64,000 nt of DNA from a virus. How positions within the stretch are numbered: the first letter of the stretch is position 1; each line of letters opens with the position of its first letter. Shown piece by piece: positions 3,530-45,526 of this stretch. The notes beneath the pieces were generated by a model. It made no database searches, was not told the origin of the DNA, and worked only from the letters and a program-made list of their open reading frames with translations. A program made the position numbers and the translations under genes. The stretch lies in the IMG/VR virus record IMGVR_UViG_3300045988_167643, one strand, 5' to 3'.

Positions 3530-3928
3530 ATGAAAAAAGATAAACCGAGATGGAAAAATCTTTCAATGTATGAACGTTTGGCCAGACGCTGCAAACAGCA
3601 TGGAGTATCAGAAGAAATGTGTGAACATTTAAGAAATAAGGGAAAAGAGAAAGAAGCAAAAGAAGAAAAACAAGAGAAATGGAGGATTAAAAATATGTGT
3701 ATTGAAAAATTAATTGAATTACTTCCAACCAGTGTTAAATGTGACACTGTAGATTTTAAAGATGTTCGGTTGAAGGATGGTCGAAATGCCATCCGTGTTA
3801 CTATTGACAGGCTTCTTACCCAGGAAGAGAAAGATAAAATGACCAGCAAAAGATTTGTTGGTCTTGACTGTGTTGGCCTTTACAAGTATGCACCGGAAGT
3901 CAAGAAATCATATTTCTATGTGGTTTAG
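3530..3928 (+). CDS. hypothetical protein
   Basis: 132-aa ORF, CGGAGG SD. Confidence 0.6.
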   Translation: MKKDKPRWKNLSMYERLARRCKQHGVSEEMCEHLRNKGKEKEAKEEKQEKWRIKNMCIEKLIELLPTSVKCDTVDFKDVRLKDGRNAIRVTIDRLLTQEEKDKMTSKRFVGLDCVGLYKYAPEVKKSYFYVV

Positions 3929-15628: not shown

Positions 15629-16057
15629 ATGAAATATTATGAAACAACAGAAAAAATATATGAATTTTGCAAATCTTACATAGATGAACATGGTTATGCT
15701 CCAACAATAAGAGAAATCGGAAGTGGGGTTGGGCTTAAAAGTACATCAACAGTGTATACACATATGCAACGGTTGTTTAAAAATGGTAGGTTTGAAACAG
15801 AACATCCTGGAGAAGCAAGGGCATTTAGGGTTATATCACAAAACAGTAAATCAACAAATAAATCAATTGATAAAGATGGATTACTAGATTATATAAAGGA
15901 AGAATTTCCAGGAGTAATTGATACACATTGGAACTGGGATGTATTAGAAAATATTATTGATTATGCAAAATCCAAATATAATGGAGAAGAGTTAATAAAA
16001 TTTTTAATAAATATAATCCCAGAAGTTACATATGAAGAATATCTGATGTTTATGTAG
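15629..16057 (+). CDS. LexA N-terminal DNA-binding domain protein lacking the S24 peptidase domain
   Basis: GGAGG SD; IDEHGYAPTIREIGSGVGLKSTSTVYTHMQRLFKNGRF...ARAFRV parallels the LexA winged-helix (GYPPSxREIG..vGL.S.STV..HL..L..KG...R...pRAI); no Ser-Lys peptidase domain in the 142-aa product. Confidence 0.75.
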   Translation: MKYYETTEKIYEFCKSYIDEHGYAPTIREIGSGVGLKSTSTVYTHMQRLFKNGRFETEHPGEARAFRVISQNSKSTNKSIDKDGLLDYIKEEFPGVIDTHWNWDVLENIIDYAKSKYNGEELIKFLINIIPEVTYEEYLMFM

Positions 16058-19494: not shown

Positions 19495-19758
19495 ATGAAA
19501 GAAATTAAGGTTTATTTATTCACAGAAGATGAAGCAACTGAAATTTTACAAAATATATTAGATAATAAAACTTTGGTATTAACACAATATTTAGATTGTT
19601 TTGTAGCAGAGACATCAGAGCAGGAACTTGATGCCTCTCAAATTGATGAGAGAATGGCACAATATTTAGAAATTGATTCTTGTGAACATCATGCGTTTAT
19701 TAGTTATAATGGGAAAACTTATATGTGTGTTATTCCTACAAACGAAATTGGAGATTAA
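19495..19758 (+). CDS. hypothetical protein
   Basis: ATG after CGGAGG within track ORF 19489..19758. Confidence 0.6.
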   Translation: MKEIKVYLFTEDEATEILQNILDNKTLVLTQYLDCFVAETSEQELDASQIDERMAQYLEIDSCEHHAFISYNGKTYMCVIPTNEIGD

Positions 19759-19760
19759 AA

Positions 19761-20315
19761 ATGACTAGAAGAGAATGGACTGCTGAAGAAGAGAAATACA
19801 TGAATAAGTATTATTTACGCCAGCCTACCAAGCGAACTGCGAAAGTTCTTAATCGAAGTATTGAGTCTGTTCGTAAAAAAGCTGTACAAATGGGAATTAA
19901 TACATATTATGATGGTTATTTAAGTGCTCATGTACTTGCAGAATGTTTTAGCACTAACACTCAAGTGATAAAACGATGGATAGAAAAATTCAATCTCCCA
20001 GCTATTAAGATAAATGATTCAAAACATAGAACTAGATATCAGATAGATCCAGAGAATTTTTGGAAATGGGCAGATGGTCACCGAGACGTAATTAATTGGT
20101 CTGGCTATGATTTATGCTCAATACTTCCGGAGCCACAATGGGTAGAATTTGAACAATCAAGATATAAAACAAAACGGCATTGTAGAAAATTTACTGCAAA
20201 TGAAATAGTGCAAATTAAACACATGCTGCGTAGATGTATGACATATAAAGAGATAGCTGAAAAGCTTGGACGGACTGAGAGGAGTATTGAAGCAAAAGTA
20301 AGAAAAATTGCATGA
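19761..20315 (+). CDS. putative DNA-binding protein with several HTH-like segments
   Basis: GGAGA SD; WTAEEEKYM...RSIESVRKKAVQMGI (Myb/SANT-like) and MTYKEIAEKLGRTERSIEAKVRKI (HTH-like). Confidence 0.5.
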   Translation: MTRREWTAEEEKYMNKYYLRQPTKRTAKVLNRSIESVRKKAVQMGINTYYDGYLSAHVLAECFSTNTQVIKRWIEKFNLPAIKINDSKHRTRYQIDPENFWKWADGHRDVINWSGYDLCSILPEPQWVEFEQSRYKTKRHCRKFTANEIVQIKHMLRRCMTYKEIAEKLGRTERSIEAKVRKIA

Positions 20316-28622: not shown

Positions 28623-29063
28623 GTGGACGAATACAAACAGTTTGATATTGTTTACGCTGATCTTTCTGGTAAAGGAACTATAGGATCTGAGCAGAAAGGT
28701 ATACGACCTGTGATAATCATTCAAAATGATACCGGCAACATTCACAGTCCAACTGTTCTTGTAATGGCGCTTACAAAGGAACTTAAGAAAGCAAATCAGC
28801 CAACCCATTACATAATTAGGAAGAATAATGCGAATGGGTTGAAATTTGATTCGATGGTATTAGGGGAGACTATTACACAGATCTCAAAGCAGCGTATTAA
28901 ACAGAAAATTGGTGTAGTAGATAATACCGCAGATAAAGATGGAATTATTGGAACATATATGGCTAATCTTACTGGAAAAAGTAGATATGGAAATCCATTA
29001 TGGACCAAGATTACACAGCTTTTCTGTAAATTGGTTAAGGAGGGGCAAATATGTGCGAATTGA
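28623..29063 (+). CDS. mazF: MazF/PemK-family endoribonuclease toxin-like protein
   Basis: GTG start; FDIVYADLSGKGTIGSEQKGIRPVIIIQND...PTVLVMALT...SMVLGETITQISKQRI follows the PemK/MazF pattern (DFsp..G.EqgG.RPalVvs.d...v.v.PiT....s.v...Qi.tid..Rl). Confidence 0.7.
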   Translation: MDEYKQFDIVYADLSGKGTIGSEQKGIRPVIIIQNDTGNIHSPTVLVMALTKELKKANQPTHYIIRKNNANGLKFDSMVLGETITQISKQRIKQKIGVVDNTADKDGIIGTYMANLTGKSRYGNPLWTKITQLFCKLVKEGQICAN

Positions 29064-29311
29064 ATAAGGTGGAGGCAATGGAACTTATAAAAGGGATTGT
29101 AGGAAGTAAAGTTTGTGCAATGTACTATAACAAGAAGAAAGGTATATCTTCAAAATCTAAGAAAATTGGCAAGAGGAGGGTGGAGAAAAATATTCAGAAT
29201 GCAAAGACTATTACTTATAGCGGTTCTGAATATATCAGGAAGATAGAGCTTCATGGAATCAAAGGGAAATTCAAATTTTCTCCATGCAGCTCTATTGTTA
29301 TTCTGTTCTGA
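29051..29311 (+). CDS. small basic protein translationally coupled to the MazF-like gene (candidate cognate partner)
   Basis: AAGGAGGGG SD 7 nt before the ATG; 13-nt overlap with the toxin gene 3' end. Confidence 0.5.
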   Translation: MCELNKVEAMELIKGIVGSKVCAMYYNKKKGISSKSKKIGKRRVEKNIQNAKTITYSGSEYIRKIELHGIKGKFKFSPCSSIVILF

Positions 29312-29321
29312 TCGAAAAAAT

Positions 29322-29335
29322 CGAACAAAAGTTCG
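29322..29335. promoter_or_regulatory. Cheo (Gram-positive LexA/SOS) box 1
   Basis: CGAACAAAAGTTCG, a perfect match to CGAAC-N4-GTTCG. Confidence 0.6.
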
Positions 29336-29373
29336 AAAATGTTAAATTATACCTTTTTATTGGTACGATAAAG

Positions 29374-29382
29374 TGGTATAAT
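29374..29382 (+). promoter_or_regulatory. extended -10 promoter (TGGTATAAT)
   Basis: TGnTATAAT consensus between two LexA-type boxes. Confidence 0.55.
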
Positions 29383-29394
29383 CAAATACATAAA

Positions 29395-29408
29395 AGAACA
29401 AATGTTCT
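29395..29408. promoter_or_regulatory. Cheo (LexA) box 2
   Basis: AGAACAAATGTTCT, GAAC-N4-GTTC palindrome 13 nt after the -10. Confidence 0.55.
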
Positions 29409-29443
29409 GATTTTTAATCGACATTGATCTTATAAAGAAAAAT

Positions 29444-29494
29444 GCCCTACCAGCAGAAAGTTTGGCGACCGTCGGCTGATAGGACAGGGTTTTC
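29444..29494 (+). terminator. GC-rich imperfect hairpin plus TTTTCT in the sigma leader (attenuator or sRNA 3' end?)
   Basis: GCCCTACCAGC ... GCTGATAGGACAGGG then TTTTCT; locally GC-rich in an AT-rich genome. Confidence 0.35.
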
Positions 29495-29732
29495 TGTACC
29501 CACGGATGGATACATACATATTATGTAGCAATTTAATGGAAATGTCAATATTTTCCAATTCTAATCTCTTGCCATTCTGTAAGAGAAATTCCGTGAGTAT
29601 AACTGTATATTAAATATGCTATTTGCTAAAAATGGAATTGTTATCTTTTTAAGAATAATTTCATTCTCTTTTTAGAAGCAAATGGTGTATTTAGTATACG
29701 AAAATTTAAAATATAAAGGGAGAATGAAAATT

Positions 29733-30401
29733 ATGGGATCAGAGAAATGGAGCAAGAATGAGAAACTTACAGAAGATGAGGTAAATAACATAGTTGACTT
29801 TTTCTACAAAGACAAGAGAAAGGAACTTAAAAAAATTTGCAACCAGATACTTCATATAATTTGGAATGATATTCCAGATTATTACAGAGATGATTTTGAA
29901 TCTTTGGCAGGATATATTATTACATTTTGCTTAGAATCTTATGATCCAACTACTGGTCCATTTAGAGCGTATGTATATCCATATATGCAAAAGAAATTTA
30001 TCAGTTATATTTATGGAATTAATTCTCTTAAACGTGGTGGTGATGGAAATTGGGATTCTGAAAAACGTGATGAAAATGGTAAAAAAGTTAAGAAAAGCGT
30101 GAAAGTAAAATTTGTCAATATAGATGACAAGGTAAAGGAAGATTCAGACTCTACATATGCAGATATTATCAAAGGTGGTAAATCTGTTGAAGAAATTATT
30201 TTTGAGGATAAAAAAGATTCAAAACTAGAAGCATGTATTAACAAGCTTAATAAAACACAAAAGAAAATAGTTTCTCTGATGATTGATGGCTACAAGCCGA
30301 ACGAGATTCAAGAGGAATTGCAACTTACTAACAAACAGTACTTTGATTATGTAACCGACATGAGAACTTCAGAATTTAGATTAGCATTGGAGGAAGACTA
30401 A
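29733..30401 (+). CDS. sigma-70 family (small/ECF-like) RNA polymerase sigma factor
   Basis: Region-2-like DDFESLAGYIITFCLESYDPTTGPFRAYVYPYMQKKFISYI and region-4 HTH LNKTQKKIVSLMIDGYKPNEIQEELQLTNKQY; ATG 10 nt after AAGGGAG. Confidence 0.65.
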   Translation: MGSEKWSKNEKLTEDEVNNIVDFFYKDKRKELKKICNQILHIIWNDIPDYYRDDFESLAGYIITFCLESYDPTTGPFRAYVYPYMQKKFISYIYGINSLKRGGDGNWDSEKRDENGKKVKKSVKVKFVNIDDKVKEDSDSTYADIIKGGKSVEEIIFEDKKDSKLEACINKLNKTQKKIVSLMIDGYKPNEIQEELQLTNKQYFDYVTDMRTSEFRLALEED

Positions 30402-30403
30402 TT

Positions 30404-32005
30404 ATGTTATGCATCAGACCAAACAAAAACGAAAAGATGGTAAGAGACCAGAAGTTTCTTAAAACTCTTCTTGGTAAGTTGGATAGAGGTGAAATTAGAA
30501 GAGACTTTTGGCTGCAGAGAAAATCTACTCAGTGGAATAATCAGATTCGTGACCAGGCAATTGTAACAACTGTACAGGGTGAAGATATTGATCCAGTAAA
30601 AATCTGTGAAGAAATTCGAGAAGGCAAACCATCTCAAAAGTGGATTGTAGATGGTGGAAACAGATTTGAAACATGGAATAATTTCTATAATAATGTGTTT
30701 GCTCTTGGGAAAAATCTTGAAAATTACATTGTTCCATACGAGTCAACAAAAAAGGATGAAAACGGAAATGTAGTTAAAGATGAAGATGGCTATCCAATTA
30801 TGGAAGAGCTTGAGTTTGATCTTCGTGGAAAACGCTATAAAGATCTTCCTATGGAGCTTAAGGAAAGATTTAATAACTACAAAGTAATTTATGTAGAGCA
30901 TTCAAACTGTACAGAAAGTAGAATGGGGTATCATATTCGAAGATATAACAACCAGAAGAGTATGAATAAAAATCAGAAATCTGTTACATATATGGAGCAG
31001 ACTGCAAAATGGACAAAGGAAATTATGAATTCCAATCCATTCTTTAAAGAGCTTCCGTGTTATCATGGAGCTTCTGAAAAGAACAGTGATCCAGAGAGAG
31101 TAATGCTTGATACTGTAATGATTATCTTTTTTAAAGATGAATGGAAAAGTAATGCAGAGAAAAATGCTTTATATGTGGAAACAAATGGAGAAAAAGAGCA
31201 GTTTAATCTCCTTGATAACTATCTTGGAAGAATGTATGCATTAGTTGAAGACAACGATGAACTTTCAAAACTTTTTGAGAAAAAAGATGCGCCAATGTGG
31301 ATTGCTTTATTCGATAAATTCTCAAAACTTGAAATGGATGATTCTAAGTTTAAAGAGTTTTTAGAGGCATTTATTGGTGGGTTAAGAGAAACCAAAATTA
31401 ATGGAGAATCTTTCGATGAAATTAAGGGAAATAAATCTACAAAGAACAGAAATACAATCTTTGGAAAATTAGAGTATCTTGAATCTCTTATGATGGATTT
31501 CTTCTCTATTAATAAGGAAGATATTGTTGAATCTTTTGGTACTACAGACAGATTTGATGCATTTGCAACAAAATTTGAGAACACAGAGTTAATGGAAGCA
31601 CTTGGCATTCCAATGGGAAGTGATATTGATCGTATTGCTGCACAGACACTTATGACAGTATGTGGGAAGACAGATTTTTCTGATAAGGCAATTCAAGAAT
31701 TTATTACTGCTGATGAATATACAGAAGATAACATTGAGGATGTAGACCTGTACCTGGATGAAGTTAATGAATGGAGTCTTGAGCTTCCAGCCGGTACTAC
31801 ACTTCTCAAGGCAAAATACGTTCCTGCAATGGTAGGATTCGTAAAATATACATATGATAACGATACAAATACAGATGCTCTTAATTGGTTTAAAGATTAT
31901 GCTTTCCAGTGTACAAAACCAGAAAACGATGTTCAGAAACTTCTCAACGATATGAAGGAAGATTTTAATTCATATTTGACATACAAAGAAAATAAGACAG
32001 CGTAA
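30404..32005 (+). CDS. DUF262/ParB-superfamily-like protein
   Basis: GGAGGA SD; N-terminal LQRKSTQWNNQIRDQAIV...WIVDGGNRFET resembles the DUF262 FQR..vW ... DGQQR motifs. Confidence 0.5.
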   Translation: MLCIRPNKNEKMVRDQKFLKTLLGKLDRGEIRRDFWLQRKSTQWNNQIRDQAIVTTVQGEDIDPVKICEEIREGKPSQKWIVDGGNRFETWNNFYNNVFALGKNLENYIVPYESTKKDENGNVVKDEDGYPIMEELEFDLRGKRYKDLPMELKERFNNYKVIYVEHSNCTESRMGYHIRRYNNQKSMNKNQKSVTYMEQTAKWTKEIMNSNPFFKELPCYHGASEKNSDPERVMLDTVMIIFFKDEWKSNAEKNALYVETNGEKEQFNLLDNYLGRMYALVEDNDELSKLFEKKDAPMWIALFDKFSKLEMDDSKFKEFLEAFIGGLRETKINGESFDEIKGNKSTKNRNTIFGKLEYLESLMMDFFSINKEDIVESFGTTDRFDAFATKFENTELMEALGIPMGSDIDRIAAQTLMTVCGKTDFSDKAIQEFITADEYTEDNIEDVDLYLDEVNEWSLELPAGTTLLKAKYVPAMVGFVKYTYDNDTNTDALNWFKDYAFQCTKPENDVQKLLNDMKEDFNSYLTYKENKTA

Positions 32006-33560: not shown

Positions 33561-34301
33561 GTGAGTTGCTTAATTAGATGTGGTGAACAGTATGTTCATT
33601 TTGATAGAAAAAGCAAAATAAAACTTGGTCCTAAAATATGTGCAAAAACTTTTGAAGAACAAAAAGCAAAAAATCTCATTAAAAATCCTCCAAACAACCT
33701 AAAGAAATATAAGTTTGAAATTGAGCCATTATTTGAAGGAAAAACAGAATGTGAGATTAAGCAAGAGCAAATACTTCAAAGAGCTGCAGAACATGCAAAG
33801 AAAACTGGATGTTATACAGAGTTGAAAGAAAATCTGATCGTAGAAGCGAAACCTGAAGTAAAACAAGAGGAAAAAATTGAGAATAAGTCAACTATTAAAG
33901 AAGAAGATCATAACAACAACATAGATAATTGGCTTAAAAAGTTACATAGCTGTAATGAAATTAAAGAGGAAGCAAGAGAGCGAATGGAATATCTCTATAA
34001 GAAACTAAGCCTAATAGATCAGGCACAGGATGTTTTCTTGCATGTTATTGAAAGTAATGAGCATCCAAATGCATCTATGGCATATAAGGAGAGAATGAAA
34101 TTATCTGAGATAAGGAGAAAAAGAAGGCAAATTAAAAATGAGTTAGCCGTTGTACAAATGATCATATCTCATAATATATCCTCTAAATTATATGAACGAA
34201 TGGTTGCAGTGTCAGAAAGTATACAAAATCCTCAGAATATTAATATTAAATATACGAATGAGTTAACAGATGACTTATTGAATCAATTTGAAAGGATGTG
34301 A
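33561..34301 (+). CDS. hypothetical protein
   Basis: 246-aa ORF, GTG start after AGGTAGGTGAG. Confidence 0.55.
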   Translation: MSCLIRCGEQYVHFDRKSKIKLGPKICAKTFEEQKAKNLIKNPPNNLKKYKFEIEPLFEGKTECEIKQEQILQRAAEHAKKTGCYTELKENLIVEAKPEVKQEEKIENKSTIKEEDHNNNIDNWLKKLHSCNEIKEEARERMEYLYKKLSLIDQAQDVFLHVIESNEHPNASMAYKERMKLSEIRRKRRQIKNELAVVQMIISHNISSKLYERMVAVSESIQNPQNINIKYTNELTDDLLNQFERM

Positions 34302-34305
34302 CGTA

Positions 34306-34956
34306 TTGAGCAGGAAATTTAAAATTATCCGAAACTATTGGGAAGAAGATCAAATATTATACCGGAAGGCAAATATAGAAATTGATCCTGGATTAACAGT
34401 CCTGGTTGGATGTAATGGATCTGGTAAAACAACATTGATCAATCAATTAAAAAGGCTATTAGACAAGGAAAAAATTACATATACAAGTTTTGATAATCTT
34501 TTTGATGGTGGAGAAAACGCGCGAAGCTGGGCTGGTTATACAGGAGATTTTTCATTTTTAGCTGCTGCAGTAATGTCAAGTGAAGGTGAAAATATTCTAA
34601 TGAATATTGGAAACTATGCTGCAAAAATTGGTAAAGCGGTAACAAGTGTATTAACAAAAGAAAATAAAGAGTTATGGGCTTTCTTTGATGCAGCAGATAG
34701 TGGATTGAGCATTGATGGTATAAAAGAAATTAAGAATAAACTGTTTTCAATAATAGAAAAAGATTGTAAGACAAAGGGAATTGAACTTTATATTGTGGTT
34801 TCAACAAATGCTTATGAATTTACAAATGGAGAGCAGTGTTTTGATGTCTATAACTGCAAGTACAGAACATTTGAAAACTACGATGAATACTCAAAATTCA
34901 TTTGTAAATCAAGGGAAATTAAAGATAAAAGATATGGTGTAAAGAAAGGAGAATGA
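34306..34956 (+). CDS. minimal ABC/SMC-type P-loop ATPase
   Basis: Walker A GCNGSGKTT, signature-like MSSEGEN, Walker B-like LWAFFDAADSGL; start TTG 34306 (or 34288). Confidence 0.6.
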   Translation: MSRKFKIIRNYWEEDQILYRKANIEIDPGLTVLVGCNGSGKTTLINQLKRLLDKEKITYTSFDNLFDGGENARSWAGYTGDFSFLAAAVMSSEGENILMNIGNYAAKIGKAVTSVLTKENKELWAFFDAADSGLSIDGIKEIKNKLFSIIEKDCKTKGIELYIVVSTNAYEFTNGEQCFDVYNCKYRTFENYDEYSKFICKSREIKDKRYGVKKGE

Positions 34957-36575: not shown

Positions 36576-36669
36576 GTTGAATTTCTGGAATAAGTGATAA
36601 TGAAAAATGGAAGTAGTAATTGTGAGGTGATGATAGATATGATTGATCGAGATTTAAATAAAAACGTTG

Positions 36670-36968
36670 TTTATTACAAAATGTAAATTAATAGGTATAC
36701 AAAACCAATTACCAGATTATCATAAATACCTACTGTTTTGTAACCATGTAAATTAAGAGGTATACAAAACCAGATCCCCTTACACGACTGACACGGCGTT
36801 GTTTTGTAGTCATGTAAATTAAGAGGTATACAAAAATATGGATGGACGATCACAAGTCCTACAGAAGTTTTGTAACCATGTAAATTAAGAGGTATACAAA
36901 ACCAAACGAAAAACTCAAAGTTGATACCAAATGTTTTGTAACCATATAAATTAAGAGGCATACAAAAC
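36670..36968 (+). CRISPR. CRISPR array: 5 x 36-nt repeats, 4 spacers of 29-30 nt
   Basis: Repeats at 36670 (degenerate), 36735, 36801, 36867, 36933; consensus GTTTTGTAACCATGTAAATTAAGAGGTATACAAAAC; spacers unique. Strand inferred only from co-orientation with the nuclease gene. Confidence 0.9.
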
Positions 36969-37150
36969 CTCAAAGTATAGTTTTATACCTCTTATTTTAA
37001 GGCACTTCTATGAAATAGACTAAGAGAAATCTACGTTATAAAAAGATAATATGTTATGGTGTCGCTCTAGCTGTAATTATATCGTTTGTACCTAAACATA
37101 CACTGTGCCGAACATGATTGGTGTAAGTGATACAAACATGTAACTTTTTA
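36969..37150 (+). ncRNA. putative tracrRNA / omega-RNA-like scaffold
   Basis: Anti-repeat GTTTTATACCTCTTATTTTA (36980-36999) complementary to the 3' 22 nt of the repeat; downstream stems (GTTTGTA 37084-90 / TACAAAC 37131-37); T5 run at 37145-49. Ends are guesses. Confidence 0.55.
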
Positions 37151-37212
37151 TAACATTGTCGAAGAGCATGACCAATTTTAAATTGAGATTATATTATAAA
37201 GGAAATAAAAAT

Positions 37213-38952
37213 ATGAATTATATGGATTTTGTATTAATTGTGGATAAAAATAGTAAACCATGTATACCAATAAAAAATGGTAAAGCAGGTTATTTATTAA
37301 GAGAACATAAAGCAGAAATTATAAATCACGAGCCATTAGTTATCAAAAGAACTGATGATTATAATTCGGATTTAGAAAATAGAGATATATTTGAATTAAA
37401 AGTAGATAGTGGATATTTAAATATCGGATTTTCTGTAAGCGATAATGAGCATGAATATATTGCAGGTCAAGTTGAAATGCTAAACGGAATGAGTAATAGA
37501 TTGTTAGAAAGAAAATCTATGCGTAGTTTCAGAAGAAATCGTTTACGTTATAGAAAAAATAAGAACATTGATTATAAAACAGTACATAATCCTACTTATA
37601 AAAATGGAAATGAAGATGGATGGTTTGCACCGTCTATTGTACATAAAATGGAAACGCATATCAGAATCATTGAGCAATTAAAACAATGGGTTCCAATCGA
37701 TAAAGTTATTGTAGAGGTGGCAAATTTTGACATTGCTGCAATGGATGCATATTTAAAGGACGGAACTATTTTAAATGGAAAAGATTATCAAAATGGTGAA
37801 ATGAAAGGATATGAGAATGTTGTATCTTATGTAAGAGCCAGAGATAATTATTCTTGTTACTTTTGCAATAAGAAAAAGAAAAAAGATGGTACACTAAAAG
37901 AGAAACCAAAAAGAATAGAAGTGCACCATAAAATACCAAGATCCTGGGGTGGTACTAATAATCCAGGAAATTTGATTTGCGTATGTCAAGGATGTCATCA
38001 GAAAATACATTCGAATAATAATAACAACAAATATTTTAAAGAATTATTAGAACAAGCTTTACAAGAAAATACATTTAAAGATTCTACATATATGAATATT
38101 GTTAGATGGGAATTATTAAACAGACTTACTGAAAAATATCCAGAGCTTGATATTGAAGCTGAATATGGTTATAACACAAAAATTAATAGAAAAGAAGCAG
38201 GTTTGAGAAAATTCCATTATAATGATGCAGTTTGTATAAAAGAATTTAAGAATATAACTTTATCTAAAAAAGTATTTATTGTCGAACAAAAACGTTGTAA
38301 TGATAGAAAAATGGAAAGTTTTGCAGATGCAAAATATATAGATTCAAGAGATGGTAAAAAGAAAAAAGGAAATGATCTAAAAGTAATTAGGCATAGTACT
38401 AAATCAAAACGCTCTACAAATAAAGAACATATTGATAATGAAAGAATCTTTAGAAAAGAGAAAGTATCTAAGGGTAAAATACAATTTGAGTGTCATTCAT
38501 ATTGCGTAAAACCAGGAGATTTAATATACATAAAAGAAGGTAAACATAAAGGGAAAATTGCAGAAGTTTCTACAATACAGATTGTAGGCGAAAAAATTCC
38601 TAATCCGATAATTGATATTAATGAGATAAATAATAAAAAAATTGATTTCAACAGAGAGTTGAAAAAAAGAAAAACAACTTCTAATATGACTGATTATCAA
38701 AAACGTTTTGCAAAATATCAAATTAGATTTACATATAAAGAATCTGATGCAGATGGACCATCTATAACGCTTACGCAAAAAGAATATGAAAAGCTTAAAG
38801 AGAATAAATCAGATAGAGTAAAAATTATTCGTACCAGACGTGGATTAGTTTGGAGAGAGTACGACAGACTTACATATGAAGCCGAAAATATGGATCAGGA
38901 AGAAAAGAAATTAGAAGTAAAAAATAAGAAACAAGAATTAAAAGCTGCATAA
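37213..38952 (+). CDS. iscB: IscB-like RNA-guided nuclease (PLMP-like, RuvC-I, bridge helix, RuvC-II, HNH, RuvC-III, C-terminal domain), CRISPR-associated
   Basis: FVLIVDKNSKPCIPIKNGKAGYLLREHKAEII; ELKVDSGYLNIGFSV; RKSMRSFRRNRLRYRKNK; KVIVEVANFD; CYFC..EVHHKIPRSWGGTNNPGNLICVCQGCHQKIH; KFHYNDAVCI. ATG 37213 follows AAAGGA; the track start TTG 37156 probably lies inside the RNA scaffold. Confidence 0.85.
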   Translation: MNYMDFVLIVDKNSKPCIPIKNGKAGYLLREHKAEIINHEPLVIKRTDDYNSDLENRDIFELKVDSGYLNIGFSVSDNEHEYIAGQVEMLNGMSNRLLERKSMRSFRRNRLRYRKNKNIDYKTVHNPTYKNGNEDGWFAPSIVHKMETHIRIIEQLKQWVPIDKVIVEVANFDIAAMDAYLKDGTILNGKDYQNGEMKGYENVVSYVRARDNYSCYFCNKKKKKDGTLKEKPKRIEVHHKIPRSWGGTNNPGNLICVCQGCHQKIHSNNNNNKYFKELLEQALQENTFKDSTYMNIVRWELLNRLTEKYPELDIEAEYGYNTKINRKEAGLRKFHYNDAVCIKEFKNITLSKKVFIVEQKRCNDRKMESFADAKYIDSRDGKKKKGNDLKVIRHSTKSKRSTNKEHIDNERIFRKEKVSKGKIQFECHSYCVKPGDLIYIKEGKHKGKIAEVSTIQIVGEKIPNPIIDINEINNKKIDFNRELKKRKTTSNMTDYQKRFAKYQIRFTYKESDADGPSITLTQKEYEKLKENKSDRVKIIRTRRGLVWREYDRLTYEAENMDQEEKKLEVKNKKQELKAA

Positions 38953-38961
38953 AAAAAGGAG

Positions 38962-40785
38962 ATGATCATTATAGACTCAGAAGAGAAAAATACTCAACAG
39001 TCCATTCTGCGCAAGCATTTTGAGATGCTATATCCGGATAAACTAAAGGATGATGAATGGATAAGACTGGTACGGATAAATAAAATAAGCAATGAAACTT
39101 TTGTCGATTACATAAAAACTTATGATGAATATTACAATTATATTCAAACTTATAAATGGAATTTTGATTTATATAATCAACTTGCAACAAATATTGGACG
39201 TGATAAAGGAACAGAAAGTCAACAGAGAACAAGAAGAGTTTTGTTCCTGGATTTTGATCAGAAAGATTACGAACGATTATCTGGGGCAAAAGCATTTACA
39301 GGCTTCATAAAAAGTAAAATAAAAAAATTGTTTCTACATGCATGTATAAATTCAGGACATGGGTATCACTATTATATATGTATTGATGAAAAAGCTAATA
39401 ATGCAAAAGAAGTTGTAGAGCTTAATAAAACACTTGCAGATATCTTTAGAGCAGATCTTAAGGCAACATTATCAACGCAAATCGCGCGAATTCCATGCTC
39501 TTTTAATCACAAAACAGAAGATGGAGAATATGACTATCAAGATCCAGGTAAGTGGGAATATGTGAGAGTTGTCAATAATGCATATAAAAATGGACCACAG
39601 TATAGAGCATATCCATTATCTGAAATTAGAAGTTACATATCAGATTATTACAAAAATCTGGATAAAGAGGTAAATATTTTTGCCCTGAAAGAATGGAAAG
39701 AAGCGAAAAGCGGAAAAGAATTTAATTATTTCTGTATTGAGCGTGTTAAACATGAAGGAGCGGTTAAGGGACAGCGTAACTTCTGGCATGGTCGAATTGT
39801 TAAAAGTATGCAGAAACAGGGTTATAGTGAGCAAGAAATTTTTGCGGCATGTAAAGAATATAATGCAGCCTGTATTCCACCAAAATCTGATAGTGTAATT
39901 TTAGATGACACGGCAAGATTTTTGAAAAAGAAATATAACTTAACAGGATGTTATGGCGCTTTTCCAGAAAATGATGAAAGACATTGGTGGGTCGCTATGC
40001 AGTGTGATGAAGCAAAATGTAAGACTTTTAATTGTGGGCTTTGTATAACGGAAATGGATACCGATGAAAAACACAATCCACAAAGGGCTGCTGGAGCAAA
40101 AATAAATAAGAAGATTTTGAAGAATAGTACCATTAGAAAGATGACAGGAAACGATTATTTGGTCATAACTCTTATTGATGTTTATGAAGTATTATACGGA
40201 AGAAAAGGGTTTAGAGTAAGAGATTTAATTGACAAATTAAAATCAAAATATGCTAAGAGAAGATGTATTGGAGATAAAACGTTAAAGCCTCTTTTACTTA
40301 ATTTACAAGAAAAGAAATGGATTCAGATTGTCGAAGATAAAAAGAAACCAGGAGTATTTCTTGATTCCAGACTTGTACTGAACAGAAGATTAAAAGAAAT
40401 CCAGCAAGGCTATATTGAATTTTATTTTAATATAGCGAGAGCATTAATTGATGGTCGAATTGTTGCTAATGAATATTTAGTCTACATTACATTACTAAGA
40501 AATCTTGATAACGGAAGACCTGTTACATATGATGAACTAGCTTACGATTTAGATTTTTCGAGACAAAATGTTGCTAAGTATATTAAAAATTTGGAAGATG
40601 CAGGATGTATTTTTATCAGTAAAGGAACAACCGATAAAGGATTTGAATGTAATAAATATCGTGTAACTAATCCTCAATTATTTGACGAGATTGATAGAAA
40701 GAGAAGAAAAGAATTTGAGAAAGCATCAGTTACTCTTGCAGATGAACAGAGTAATGAGCTTAGTGAAGCAATATTAATAGCGTAG
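38962..40785 (+). CDS. replication initiator: AEP primase-polymerase domain + PriCT-like + C-terminal winged-helix
   Basis: AEP motifs VLFLDFDQ (DxD), NSGHGYHYY (sGxGxH), IARIPCSFNHK; then FWHGRIVKSMQKQGYSEQEIFAACKEYN; C-terminal wHTH YDELAYDLDFSRQNVAKYIKNLEDAGCIF. Start codon uncertain (SD abuts the ATG). Confidence 0.7.
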   Translation: MIIIDSEEKNTQQSILRKHFEMLYPDKLKDDEWIRLVRINKISNETFVDYIKTYDEYYNYIQTYKWNFDLYNQLATNIGRDKGTESQQRTRRVLFLDFDQKDYERLSGAKAFTGFIKSKIKKLFLHACINSGHGYHYYICIDEKANNAKEVVELNKTLADIFRADLKATLSTQIARIPCSFNHKTEDGEYDYQDPGKWEYVRVVNNAYKNGPQYRAYPLSEIRSYISDYYKNLDKEVNIFALKEWKEAKSGKEFNYFCIERVKHEGAVKGQRNFWHGRIVKSMQKQGYSEQEIFAACKEYNAACIPPKSDSVILDDTARFLKKKYNLTGCYGAFPENDERHWWVAMQCDEAKCKTFNCGLCITEMDTDEKHNPQRAAGAKINKKILKNSTIRKMTGNDYLVITLIDVYEVLYGRKGFRVRDLIDKLKSKYAKRRCIGDKTLKPLLLNLQEKKWIQIVEDKKKPGVFLDSRLVLNRRLKEIQQGYIEFYFNIARALIDGRIVANEYLVYITLLRNLDNGRPVTYDELAYDLDFSRQNVAKYIKNLEDAGCIFISKGTTDKGFECNKYRVTNPQLFDEIDRKRRKEFEKASVTLADEQSNELSEAILIA

Positions 40786-41274
40786 TATCTAATCTATATG
40801 ACCTATAGGGAATATATATGGGGATTACCCTATATGCCCTGTAGTCATATATTATACATTCTATACAATGGTACTACTAACGGCAGGTAGAAAAATGAGC
40901 TACGTCTTATTTTCTATAGCATCTAAGCCAGTCGAAGTATGCAGTTTTTTGTACTACTAACGGCATGTACAAAAACGGCTTAAAGCCTTATTTTATAAGG
41001 GATCTAAGGCGATTTTTCGATTTATTTTATGAATGTTGTATAGGATTTGAGGGGTCAAAATTCCCGATGGCGATTTGCGATTAAGTCAATGTTTATAAGG
41101 GTTTAAAGCCATTTTTGACGTGCAGTAGAAAATCCGGTCAACCGATTTTTATCAGTCATAGTGACCAAATCGATTTCATACAAAACGCTTTTTAGCCTTA
41201 TAAAATAAGGGAAAGGTGCTTCGTATGACAGTATGTAGTACGGTACGACATTTGAACGACATACAGGAGTAGTT
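40786..41274. repeat. iteron-rich non-coding region, probable replication origin
   Basis: GTACTACTAACGGCAKGTA twice, 80 bp apart (40870, 40950); CCTTAT-N4-ATAAGG palindromes (40985, 41196); six or more (G/T)CGATTT repeats; nested inverted repeat at 40796-40850. Confidence 0.6.
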
Positions 41275-41622
41275 ATGGCAGATATATTTGATTGTGTAAA
41301 AGTATCGGACAATATACGTCCAAGATATACATCATATGAAATTATTTATATGATAAGAGAAAAACAAAAGCAGAGTGGATTATCACTTGAAGAATTTTGT
41401 GTAAAATACAATTTAACTTTAGAAGGATATGAAAAACTAATATCTTATAAAGGAGTATTTAATTGGAAAATATATTATAAGTGTGCAGAAATTTTAGAAG
41501 TGAATGTTGCTGAGTTATTAGAAGAACTTGCTGATGATATTCCTGCTTCTGACGATAGGACATTTCTTTTAGCAAATAAATTGTTTAATGAAATTATTAT
41601 GCAGGAAAAAATAGCTAAGTAA
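41275..41622 (+). CDS. XRE/Cro-type helix-turn-helix regulator
   Basis: AGGAG SD; QKQSGLSLEEFCVKYNLTLEGYEKLISYK...AEILEVNVAELL is the HTH_XRE pattern. Confidence 0.65.
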   Translation: MADIFDCVKVSDNIRPRYTSYEIIYMIREKQKQSGLSLEEFCVKYNLTLEGYEKLISYKGVFNWKIYYKCAEILEVNVAELLEELADDIPASDDRTFLLANKLFNEIIMQEKIAK

Positions 41623-44428: not shown

Positions 44429-45526
44429 ATGAAAGACATTAAGATTGTGGCTGGAGCAAACTGGGGAGACGAAGGAAAAGGACTAATGACTGATTACTTT
44501 TCACAGAAACCTAATAGTATTGTAGTATGTTCTAATGGTGGAAGTCAAAGAGGACATACTGTGGTAACACCGGACGGAATCAGACATGTCTTTCATCATT
44601 TTGGTTCTGGAACTTTTAATGGTGCTGCTACATATTTACCAAAAGAATTTATTGTAAATCCACTTATTTTTGCTCAAGAATATAAAGAACTGATAAATAA
44701 GAGAATTATTCCTAATATTTATGTTCATGGAGATTGTATGGTTTCGACTCCGTATGATATGATGGCAAACCAGGTCATCGAAGAGAGTCGTGGAAAACAA
44801 AAGCATGGTAGTTGTGGATTTGGAATTTTTGAAACCATTAAGAGATATAAAAATGGTATAACCGATTTTGATAAAGCAAAGGACTATTATCTTGAAAAAT
44901 TTGAACGAGATAAAATTCTACTATCAGACGACTGGAAAAGAATATTTAATGATCCAGGAATAAATGATCATTTTATAGAAGATTTGGATTTTATGAATGA
45001 TCACATTAAATCAATTAGAGATGAAAGCTTTCTAAATATGTTTGACCATATTATTTTTGAAGCTGCTCAAGGACTACTACTCGATCAGAATAATCTAAAA
45101 TATTTCCCATATCTTACACCATCTAATACAGGTCTGAAAAATCCTAAAAAAATTATTGAAAGAATTGATTGGTATGATGAATTAAATATAGAAGTATGTT
45201 ATGTGACACGTACATATTTAACGAGACATGGTGTCGGTCCGTTTCCAACAGAGTGTGATAAAGACGAAATTAATTCTGAAATGCACGATAATACAAATGT
45301 ACCTAATCCTCATCAGGATACTTTACGTTACGGAAAGTTAGATTTAAATGAGTTATATCAAAGAGTGATGGAAGATGTTGGAAATTTTAAATGTAAAAAA
45401 TCTATTGCCATTACACACTGTAATGAATTTAGAATGGATGAAGATAAGTTTGAGAAGTTATTTTTAGGATGGAATATTTATAAATCAGATGGTGAAACAC
45501 ATAATAGCATAAAGGAGACAAAATAA
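44429..45526 (+). CDS. divergent adenylosuccinate synthetase (PurA)-like protein
   Basis: NWGDEGKG P-loop, QRGHTV, FEAAQGLLLD, TRTYLTRHGVGPFPTE all present; only 365 aa, and the GxTTGRxRRxGW segment is replaced by NVPNPHQDTLRYGKL. Confidence 0.7.
   Translation: MKDIKIVAGANWGDEGKGLMTDYFSQKPNSIVVCSNGGSQRGHTVVTPDGIRHVFHHFGSGTFNGAATYLPKEFIVNPLIFAQEYKELINKRIIPNIYVHGDCMVSTPYDMMANQVIEESRGKQKHGSCGFGIFETIKRYKNGITDFDKAKDYYLEKFERDKILLSDDWKRIFNDPGINDHFIEDLDFMNDHIKSIRDESFLNMFDHIIFEAAQGLLLDQNNLKYFPYLTPSNTGLKNPKKIIERIDWYDELNIEVCYVTRTYLTRHGVGPFPTECDKDEINSEMHDNTNVPNPHQDTLRYGKLDLNELYQRVMEDVGNFKCKKSIAITHCNEFRMDEDKFEKLFLGWNIYKSDGETHNSIKETK

Follow-up and report, generated by a model that had tools for sequence, protein, structure and literature searches.

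The DNA analysed here is a 64,000-nucleotide stretch of a viral genome (IMG/VR record IMGVR_UViG_3300045988_167643), referred to below as the window, in which two LexA-type palindromes, box 1 and box 2, bracket a promoter that we call P_box, ~340 nt 5' of a gene for a sigma-factor-like protein. The window has 31% GC and a strong GC skew, and all of its genes lie on one strand. It is part of a roughly 200-kb human-gut phage of a family spanning 120-220 kb, as contigs closely related to it in IMG/VR and ENA come from the human gut and are of these sizes. The features at the locus, and one distant gene that bears on it, are listed here in window coordinates.

15629-16057, plus strand: truncated LexA homologue of 142 amino acids, in which a LexA winged helix-turn-helix (HTH) domain at the N terminus is joined to a small, unrelated helical domain at the C terminus.
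28623-29063, plus strand: MazF/PemK-like toxin of the upstream cassette (PF02452 at 1.5e-23).
29051-29311, plus strand: open reading frame (ORF) of 86 amino acids overlapping the MazF-like gene, the second ORF of the cassette (28623-29311).
29322-29335, palindrome without strand: box 1, CGAACAAAAGTTCG, matching CGAAC-N4-GTTCG at 14/14 positions, its centre about -61.5 from the predicted start of P_box.
29354-29382, plus strand: P_box, a sigma-A-type promoter with a weak -35 (TTTTTA, 29354-59), a 17-nt spacer and the extended -10 TGGTATAAT (29374-82).
29395-29408, palindrome without strand: box 2, AGAACAAATGTTCT, with the full 12-bp GAAC-N4-GTTC core, spanning about +6 to +19 relative to the predicted start.
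29436-29513, minus strand: predicted antisense small RNA (sRNA) of ~75-80 nt, comprising a 5' hairpin, a GC-rich terminator hairpin and a U-run.
29520-29548, minus strand: sRNA promoter, TTGACA (29548-43), 17 nt, CATAAT (29525-20), agreeing with the consensus at 11/12 positions.
29566-29700, plus strand: structured 5' leader with a small hairpin, a long-range stem (29605-27 with 29677-99) and an inner hairpin.
29733-30401, plus strand: first gene, the 222-amino-acid sigma-like protein, with a ribosome-binding site (RBS), AAGGGAG, at 29716-22.
30404-32005, plus strand: second gene, a 533-amino-acid ParB/DUF262-like protein, starting 3 nt past the stop of the sigma-like gene.

The LexA operator consensus of Bacillus subtilis and the clostridia is CGAAC-N4-GTTCG, with the core GAAC-N4-GTTC (PMC4234289). 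LexA motifs are clade-specific, and those of Bacteroidetes read GGA-N5-TCC or CTAA-N5-TTAG (PMC8565304). A preliminary description of the window had reported a perfect match to the Gram-positive consensus at box 1, a site keeping the core at box 2 and an extended -10 bracketed by the two; we found each exactly at its coordinates, and both box sequences were correct. Box 2 differs at 2 of 14 bases from the Clostridioides difficile recA operator, AGAACAAATGTTTG (PMC4234289). The same description had suggested searching for GAAC-N4-GTTC against a background expectation, and this search of the 64-kb window returned exactly two sites, box 1 and box 2, versus ~0.32 expected. At least two sites occurred in 5 of 100 shuffled sequences, and none of 2000 first-order Markov windows (mean, 0.38 boxes) contained two boxes within 100 bp. 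Looser matches to CGAACN4GTTCG (two mismatches or fewer) were at chance level elsewhere in the window, with 8 found versus 6.5 expected. Throughout ~165 kb of related loci, GAAC-N4-GTTC was present only in the same intergenic region.

The promoter between the boxes is also distinctive. TGNTATAAT occurs once on the plus (coding) strand of the window, at P_box, and related TGGTATGAT elements lie in other intergenic regions (23112, 25578 and 54171), none of which has boxes. Judged from the consensus, transcription from P_box would start at ~29388-29390. In all lineages that we compared, box 2 lies 9-12 nt after the -10, which corresponds to +3/+6 to +16/+19 of the predicted start when the promoter is placed by consensus. 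Three ORFs in the region were considered as genes and set aside, namely one of 47 amino acids that runs across the boxes (29284-29427), a 28-codon ORF from 29443 and a minus-strand ORF (29430-29558): each is either not kept across lineages with indels or replaced sequence or begins outside the predicted transcripts.

To follow the boxes through related phages, we fetched relatives via homologues of the downstream protein (58-94% identity) and then read their upstream regions. Members of the main clade share ~94-99% identity over the entire 420-nt region, so that conservation there is uninformative for the boxes. The footprint was therefore read across six diverged lineages, namely the window clade and the following five.

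L022/L023: box 1 kept as CGAACAAAAGTTCG; promoter TGGTATAAT; box 2 kept as AGAACAAATGTTCT; box spacing, 73 bp.
L123/L124: box 1 CGAACAAAAGTTCT; promoter TGATATAAT; box 2 AGAACGAATGTTCG; box spacing, 72 bp.
L024: box 1 unchanged; promoter replaced by TTGACA-17-TAATAT; box 2 AGAACAGACGTTCG at the same distance from the -10; box spacing, 63 bp.
L122: box 1 CGAACAACCGTTCT; -10 degraded; box 2 with one arm mismatch (AAAAC); box spacing, 73 bp.
L025: box 1 absent, with another gene upstream; promoter TTGTCA-17-TGGTATAAT; box 2 AGAACAAAAGTTCT, 9 nt after the -10.

Across the six lineages, identity is 98-100% in the half-site arms versus 75-80% in the surrounding 130 nt, and the arms, together with the A-tract outside box 1 and the T-tract outside box 2, are the best-conserved 4+4 windows of the alignment. 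Box 1 is present in five of the six lineages, as CGAACAAAAGTTCG/T or CGAACAACCGTTCT, with arms that are 100% conserved in those five. Box 2 is present in all of them, with arms 98% conserved and a spacer that takes five forms (AAAT, AAAC, GAAT, AGAC and AAAA). The arms were kept in L022, L024, L122, L123 and L025 while the flanks fell to ~55-75% identity. The -10 is TGGTATAAT or TGATATAAT in four lineages. L123/L124 diverge strongly between box 1 and the -10, and in L024, where the promoter was replaced, box 1 is shifted by exactly 10 bp (to about -51) and box 2 is in place. With spacings of 73, 73, 72 and 63 bp, the two boxes lie on the same side of the helix. The half-sites are invariant, the spacers vary freely, the distance to the -10 is fixed and the promoter itself turns over, which is the pattern expected of a protein and its operator. 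A metagenome scan for further relatives yielded no new lineage, and a degenerate pattern of the leader motif (described below) retrieved from IMG/VR relatives that were already known, together with matches due to chance or to coding sequence, L133 among them.

These results indicate that the boxes are probably genuine operators of the LexA family, of Bacillota type at the sequence level, that control P_box. The preliminary description had proposed control by SOS or a LexA-like repressor, as a switch tied to DNA damage. Control of the promoter by the boxes is supported by their uniqueness, their invariant arms and variable spacers, and their preserved position and helical phase; SOS inducibility is something that we infer.

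We next consider which protein would occupy the boxes. As the preliminary description had noted, the gene at 15629 encodes a protein with only the N-terminal domain of LexA: its product matches PF01726 at 1.4e-13, TIGR00498 at 4.3e-13 (N-terminal part only) and the LexA structure 8s7g in the PDB at 1.8e-5, and no S24 peptidase domain was found in it. Its recognition helix, STSTVYTHM, aligns with SSSTVHGHL of B. subtilis LexA. In an AlphaFold2 (AF2) model, the N-terminal domain has a predicted local distance difference test (pLDDT) score of ~85, and the C-terminal domain scores low, too uncertain for a fold search. The gene type is a recombination mosaic (P0054-P0064), in which variants carry unrelated N termini (P0056 and P0057), a different C terminus (P0055) or the C-terminal domain alone (P0060, from a more distant phage family), and in P0064 the same N terminus sits on a full S24 LexA body. 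Many proteins of ~85 amino acids consist of the LexA N-terminal domain only. No GAAC-N4-GTTC site lies near the 15629 gene, and a search of a more distant phage family with this C-terminal domain found none either.

Judged from sequence, the ligand of the boxes could be host LexA, the 15629 product or both. We favour host LexA, with moderate confidence, because box 1 matches the host-type consensus perfectly and because the phage gene lies far away and is a mosaic. The leading alternative is that the boxes serve mainly the truncated, non-cleavable phage homologue, host LexA not being the main ligand. A precedent for a phage protein of this kind exists in GIL01, a tectivirus of Bacillus thuringiensis in which host LexA acts with gp7 at dinBoxes in the P1 and P3 promoters to set the lysis-lysogeny switch, and in which gp6 is a truncated LexA homologue (PMC6182141). 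Under this alternative there would be no damage switch; the phage programme would set the timing of P_box, or activation would come from -61.5, as gp6 of GIL01 activates P3, and the same protein could occupy host SOS boxes and so mute the host SOS response during infection. The confident winged-HTH assignment and a recognition helix close to that of Gram-positive LexA are consistent with it, as is the C-terminal domain, a possible means of dimerisation or looping. The spacings of 63, 72 and 73 bp keep the boxes in phase and are typical of looping repressors and less so of classical LexA regulation, the position of box 1 is that of a class I activator, the absence of any prophage copy among the genomes searched (see below) fits a lytic programme, and P0064 indicates that the phage family has LexA-type regulators of its own. 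However, the gene is 13.7 kb distant without boxes near it, its locus is variable, with some relatives carrying other N termini or the C-terminal domain alone, and the site of GIL01 gp6 differs from LexA boxes (PMC6182141). Moreover, two IMG/VR contigs (166581 and 161588) that have the boxes and a 100% identical sigma-like protein gave no match to the 15629 product, although this was not directly checked. On balance we consider this alternative doubtful.

It is also conceivable that the palindromes work as RNA hairpins, box 2 forming a stem-loop at the 5' end that stabilises the P_box messenger RNA and box 1, which has a T-run on the minus strand, acting as a weak terminator against minus-strand read-through into the MazF cassette. 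On the minus strand, a terminator scan picked out TCGAACTTTTGTTCGA with TTTTTTCGAT after it, and every lineage retains an A-run just before box 1 and a T-run just after box 2. The window clade has an imperfect palindrome of 115 bp (29308-29426; dyad at ~29364), of which the boxes are symmetric parts and which mirrors the -10 as TATAAT and folds about equally on either strand (z about -6). However, the box stems are just 4-6 bp, the arms never covary but are invariant GAAC/GTTC, the sole arm change (in L122) breaks pairing, and the outer sixth pair is not kept (C..T and A..G in L122, L123 and L024). The long dyad has an unfavourable covariation term outside the window clade, where z is -1.2 to -2.6 (L122, L024 and L022) or -3.4 (L123), and the exact LexA consensus in both copies would have to be a coincidence. 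We therefore regard a hairpin function as highly unlikely. Two related candidates were rejected. The 115-bp dyad was considered as a possible cruciform or RNA structure, but its conservation ends with the window clade (it is not kept in L122, L024 and L022). The mirrored TATAAT (minus strand, 29351-29346), considered as a divergent promoter, is absent in L024, and its transcript would enter the box-1 hairpin and U-run. Finally, chance palindromes in AT-rich intergenic DNA, kept only because the region is conserved, could be reconciled with the 94-99% identity of most relatives and with the shuffled sequences, but the Markov simulations, the retention of the arms in L022, L024, L122, L123 and L025 despite diverged flanks and a replaced promoter, and the conserved position relative to the -10 make this explanation barely credible.

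Having established the operator pattern, we examined the interval between P_box and the first gene. The preliminary description had placed the promoter in a 420-bp non-coding stretch. The location is exact, running from 29312 up to the RBS and ATG of the next gene, but a convergent sRNA and a structured leader within it had been missed. The minus strand of 29436-29513 is very likely an antisense sRNA of ~75-80 nt, as predicted from its structure and promoter, and the P_box transcript would be complementary to it from ~+50 to +125. The folding energy of the minus strand is -33.7 kcal/mol (z -5.9) versus -19.1 kcal/mol (z -0.45) for the plus strand, and the minus strand is the more stable of the two in six of seven lineages. 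Of the 18 pairs in the consensus structure, 8 show compensatory changes, and its G-U pairs and U-run are on the minus strand. Both promoter hexamers are kept in every lineage (with TATAAT as the -10 in L022, L024, L025 and L122) while the spacer diverges. In L022, L024 and L025, a T-run follows the hairpin on the minus strand only, so transcription from P_box probably reads through this element.

The loop of the sRNA terminator shows features of its own. The sequence GGTCGCCAAACTT (29455-29475) is inverted in L022 (~3700-3720) and L025 (~3590-3610) relative to the window, L024, L122 and L123, and a 13-nt loop sequence is conserved while the stems diverge. A near copy of the loop, AGTTTGGCGAT, lies at 54212-54222 in the leader that follows the TGGTATGAT promoter at 54171. 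This copy is a weak lead to a trans target of the sRNA loop, given that ~0.36 such matches are expected by chance.

Downstream of the sRNA, the leader at 29566-29700 has a consensus fold of 45 pairs, 13 with compensatory changes; the z of the entire leader is -5.7. Just 5' of the RBS lies an invariant block, GAAG..(A/G)T.GTGTATT.A.T.TAC. A search of the 600-nt region against Rfam returned nothing at gathering thresholds and only chance-level matches, and no toxin-like small ORF is conserved in the leader. Pairing of 29659-74 with 29714-29 to mask the Shine-Dalgarno (SD) sequence was considered and dropped, as it is not conserved in L022. With an sRNA and a structured leader between promoter and gene, control of this locus is at least two-layered.

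The 420-nt region (29290-29745) is near-identical, with few substitutions, to that of L026-L031, although the adjacent sigma-like proteins are only 74% identical. A non-coding region that is better conserved than its gene reflects either strong constraint or mosaic recombination.

We then examined the genes that P_box would serve. The first most likely starts at ATG 29733, not at 29682. Its product matches TIGR02937 at 6e-7 (29 bits; cut-off 43), PF08281 at 2e-3 (18 bits; cut-off 25.7) and phrog_1740, a sigma family of PHROG, at 1e-4. An AF2 model (pLDDT 69) has top Foldseek matches in the PDB that are nearly all sigma factors of the extracytoplasmic function (ECF) type, at E values of 5.6e-3 to 0.1 and template-modelling (TM) scores of ~0.3, whereas a phmmer search of the PDB found no sigma factor. 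With tblastn, the protein had no match in phages and none at E <= 1 in PLSDB plasmids, in which the presence of pIP404-type records was unchecked, and it is not filed in the TcdR/UviA group. We think it reasonably likely that the protein is a divergent, ECF-like member of the sigma-70 family. The name 'sigma factor' used in the preliminary description thus has sigma-70 and ECF signals behind it, but all are below cut-off, and a second sigma-like ORF exists in the window: that at 19725-20315 (196 amino acids) matches Sigma70_r4_2 at 4.4e-6, above the Pfam cut-off. The sigma-like gene 3' of the boxes is accordingly not the sole candidate for a sigma or HTH regulator in the window.

The 533-amino-acid product of the second gene had no match in Pfam at E <= 10, DUF262 included. 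It matched the PADLOC profile NsnA (ParB-DUF262) weakly, at 2.4e-5 over most of the profile, and a DGGNR motif is present in its translation; NsnA is the ParB-DUF262 sensor of the Menshen system (PMC12065111). The earlier assignment of this protein to DUF262 therefore stands on the NsnA match and the motif, and not on Pfam. The pair of genes is conserved in all relatives. The only phage match of the 533-amino-acid ORF, MT835469 (29% identity), has no boxes nearby. Genes 3' of the pair vary among relatives (34288-34956; L026-L031) and include a fragment of an AAA_15/AriA/GajA-like ATPase, which suggests a hotspot for defence or counter-defence genes 3' of the boxed promoter.

Taken with host LexA as the favoured ligand, these features suggest how the locus may work. 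A dimer on box 2 (+6 to +19) would block open-complex formation or promoter escape at P_box. Repression would be stabilised by another dimer, bound to the same helical face at box 1, which lies near -61 (-51 in one lineage). The box-1 dimer could also be a roadblock to read-through from the MazF cassette, because no plus-strand terminator was found between the cassette and box 1, the only nearby one being at 28566-87, 5' of the cassette. Removal of the repressor would allow P_box to fire, most likely through RecA*-stimulated self-cleavage of host LexA upon DNA damage or replication stress. The transcript would comprise the leader of ~340 nt, followed by the sigma-like and ParB/DUF262-like genes. 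Meanwhile, the near-consensus convergent promoter, presumed constitutive, would produce the ~75-nt antisense sRNA over the first part of the leader, so that leaky or read-through transcripts would be neutralised by duplex formation or transcriptional interference and only strong derepression would flip the system. The sigma-like protein and its ParB/DUF262-like partner might then redirect transcription. An extended version of this scheme treats the 420-nt region as a three-layer decision module of a gut-phage family (~200 kb) not described before, in which phased operators, the convergent antisense sRNA and a conserved structured leader outside the known RNA families gate a phage sigma factor, and in which the cleavable host LexA and the non-cleavable phage mimic compete for the operators. 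We regard this version as speculative and rather improbable; if it is true, the phage could sense the SOS state of its host and rewrite it.

Several observations weigh against a LexA-controlled switch of this kind. No more than five or six independent lineages underlie the footprint. L025 lacks box 1, and both the -10 and box 2 are degraded in L122. In L003, L005, L010 and probably L151, an insertion sequence (IS) encoding a MerR-like ORF of 84 amino acids and a TnpB of 390 amino acids (L003, 1460-2825) lies exactly between the leader with its RBS and the sigma-like gene, so tight coupling of P_box to the gene is not essential. Together with L025 and L122, these IS-bearing relatives indicate that the arrangement is dispensable or plastic. 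The phage's own LexA-type DNA-binding protein may be the true ligand of the boxes, and the matches that identify the 222-amino-acid protein as a sigma factor are below threshold. No relative of the sigma-like protein was found in 185,579 species genomes, which leaves a prophage or plasmid state without evidence and lysogeny, the usual setting of LexA control, unsupported. A tyrosine recombinase, a weak ParB-like match and toxin genes are at most suggestive of a temperate life. A further possibility, raised by a PurA/PurZ-like gene in the window, is that modified adenine (2-aminoadenine) in the phage DNA might alter operator recognition. The 365-amino-acid ORF concerned (44429-45526) matches phrog_1211, a PurZ-type family with an aminoadenine-pathway annotation, at 1.9e-69; the NCBIfam PurZ and PurA scores are weak, and no DatZ- or MazZ-like neighbours were detected.

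Signals in the DNA indicate that the host of the phage family is probably in Bacillota. These are strong Shine-Dalgarno sites, TTGACA/TATAAT promoters and the 31% GC. In addition, the IS/TnpB of three relatives has its best genome matches, at 76-77% identity, nearly all in Bacillota and mostly in Clostridia, an identity that places the host at the phylum or class level only. Searches for DNA similarity to GenBank phages and PLSDB plasmids with 27-33 kb as the query gave no match.

The arrangement resembles three known systems. Like GIL01, it has GAAC-N4-GTTC boxes within or just 3' of phage promoters, more than one per promoter, a phage-encoded LexA homologue that lacks the cleavage domain (here the 15629 product) and a Gram-positive host, in our case a probable one. 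The differences are considerable. GIL01 is a 15-kb linear plasmid prophage, whereas the phages described here are 120-220 kb and known from sequence alone; its boxes are in tandem, about two turns apart and 3' of the -35, whereas those at P_box bracket the promoter and are 6-7 turns apart. GIL01 uses the co-repressor gp7, for which no counterpart was identified here, the gp7 sequence not having been compared and the window having many small ORFs without an assigned function, and its boxes regulate replication and late genes rather than a sigma-like gene. GIL01 has neither an antisense sRNA nor a long structured leader, both of which occur at this locus. The phage is accordingly not filed as GIL01-like.

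A second parallel is uviA, which encodes a UV- and SOS-inducible alternative sigma factor on the Clostridium perfringens bacteriocin plasmids pIP404 and pBCNF5603 and has a LexA site in its regulatory region (PMC4459074, PMC10467148). Both cases place a LexA-type site 5' of a gene for an ECF-like sigma factor, a probable one in the present case, on a mobile element of low-GC Gram-positive bacteria, such that DNA damage would feed a sigma cascade. By contrast, uviA is carried on a small plasmid and the present gene by a phage with an additional antisense RNA layer, and the 222-amino-acid protein has no detectable similarity to plasmid-borne proteins (tblastn against PLSDB, E <= 1).

The sRNA layer has its own counterpart in tisB/istR-1 of Escherichia coli, in which a LexA-repressed gene is paired with a constitutive antisense or counter-transcript sRNA; sar/ant of P22 is a phage example of antisense control. 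As in tisB/istR-1, an SOS-repressed promoter combined with a constitutive sRNA against the 5' part of the transcript would set a threshold against leak. Unlike in that system, the protected product here is a regulator and not a membrane toxin, with no toxin-like small ORF conserved in the leader, and the sRNA is fully convergent and overlapping, with no sequence or Rfam relationship found. The locus thus combines known features in a new group of phages, and involves no new principle or mechanism.

The rest of the window contains genes and elements consistent with a large phage. In addition to the tyrosine recombinase (PF00589), the weak ParB-like match and the MazF toxin, we found a primase/DnaD-like protein, a Pnkp/RNA ligase, a ClpP-type protease, DNA methyltransferases, the PurA/PurZ-like enzyme and an IscB-like nuclease, and relatives of the phage carry a HicA toxin. 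Within 36661-38952 lies a CRISPR-like array with five copies of a ~36-nt repeat, GTTTTGTAACCATGTAAATTAAGAGGTATACAAAAC, at a period of 65-66 nt and with unique spacers of ~30 nt. An anti-repeat-like stretch 3' of the array (36976-36999) is 83% complementary to the repeat, and beyond it is a 598-amino-acid ORF with RRXRR and HNH domains (IscB-like; 37156-38952); RRXRR+HNH ORFs also occur in the relatives L029 and L165. The array and the ORF may constitute a phage-borne, CRISPR-associated IscB or compact Cas9-like system. Directly 3' of the primase/DnaD-like ORF (38962-40785), a repeat-rich non-coding stretch (40786-41280) with two copies of GTACTACTAACGGCA and several TTATAAGGG motifs may be a replication origin. 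A 300-nt non-coding region at 54146-54443, with GC above its surroundings, contains the TGGTATGAT promoter-like element at 54171-79 and lies ahead of the gene for the ClpP-type protease (54444-55040), which makes it a candidate structured leader or non-coding RNA.

SOS boxes on promoters of mobile elements and LexA control of a sigma factor, as in uviA of pIP404, are already known, and the value of the present locus is their extension to new and ecologically relevant phages. Large phages of gut Firmicutes are almost unstudied, and this locus offers a concrete entry point to the timing of their gene expression. If the phage's truncated LexA binds the boxes, it would be a second example, after gp6 of GIL01, of a phage LexA homologue with a regulatory role of its own, and it might also be a tool to silence the host SOS response. 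If host LexA binds them, these abundant phages would have a regulatory cascade that is switched directly by antibiotics and other DNA-damaging conditions in the gut.

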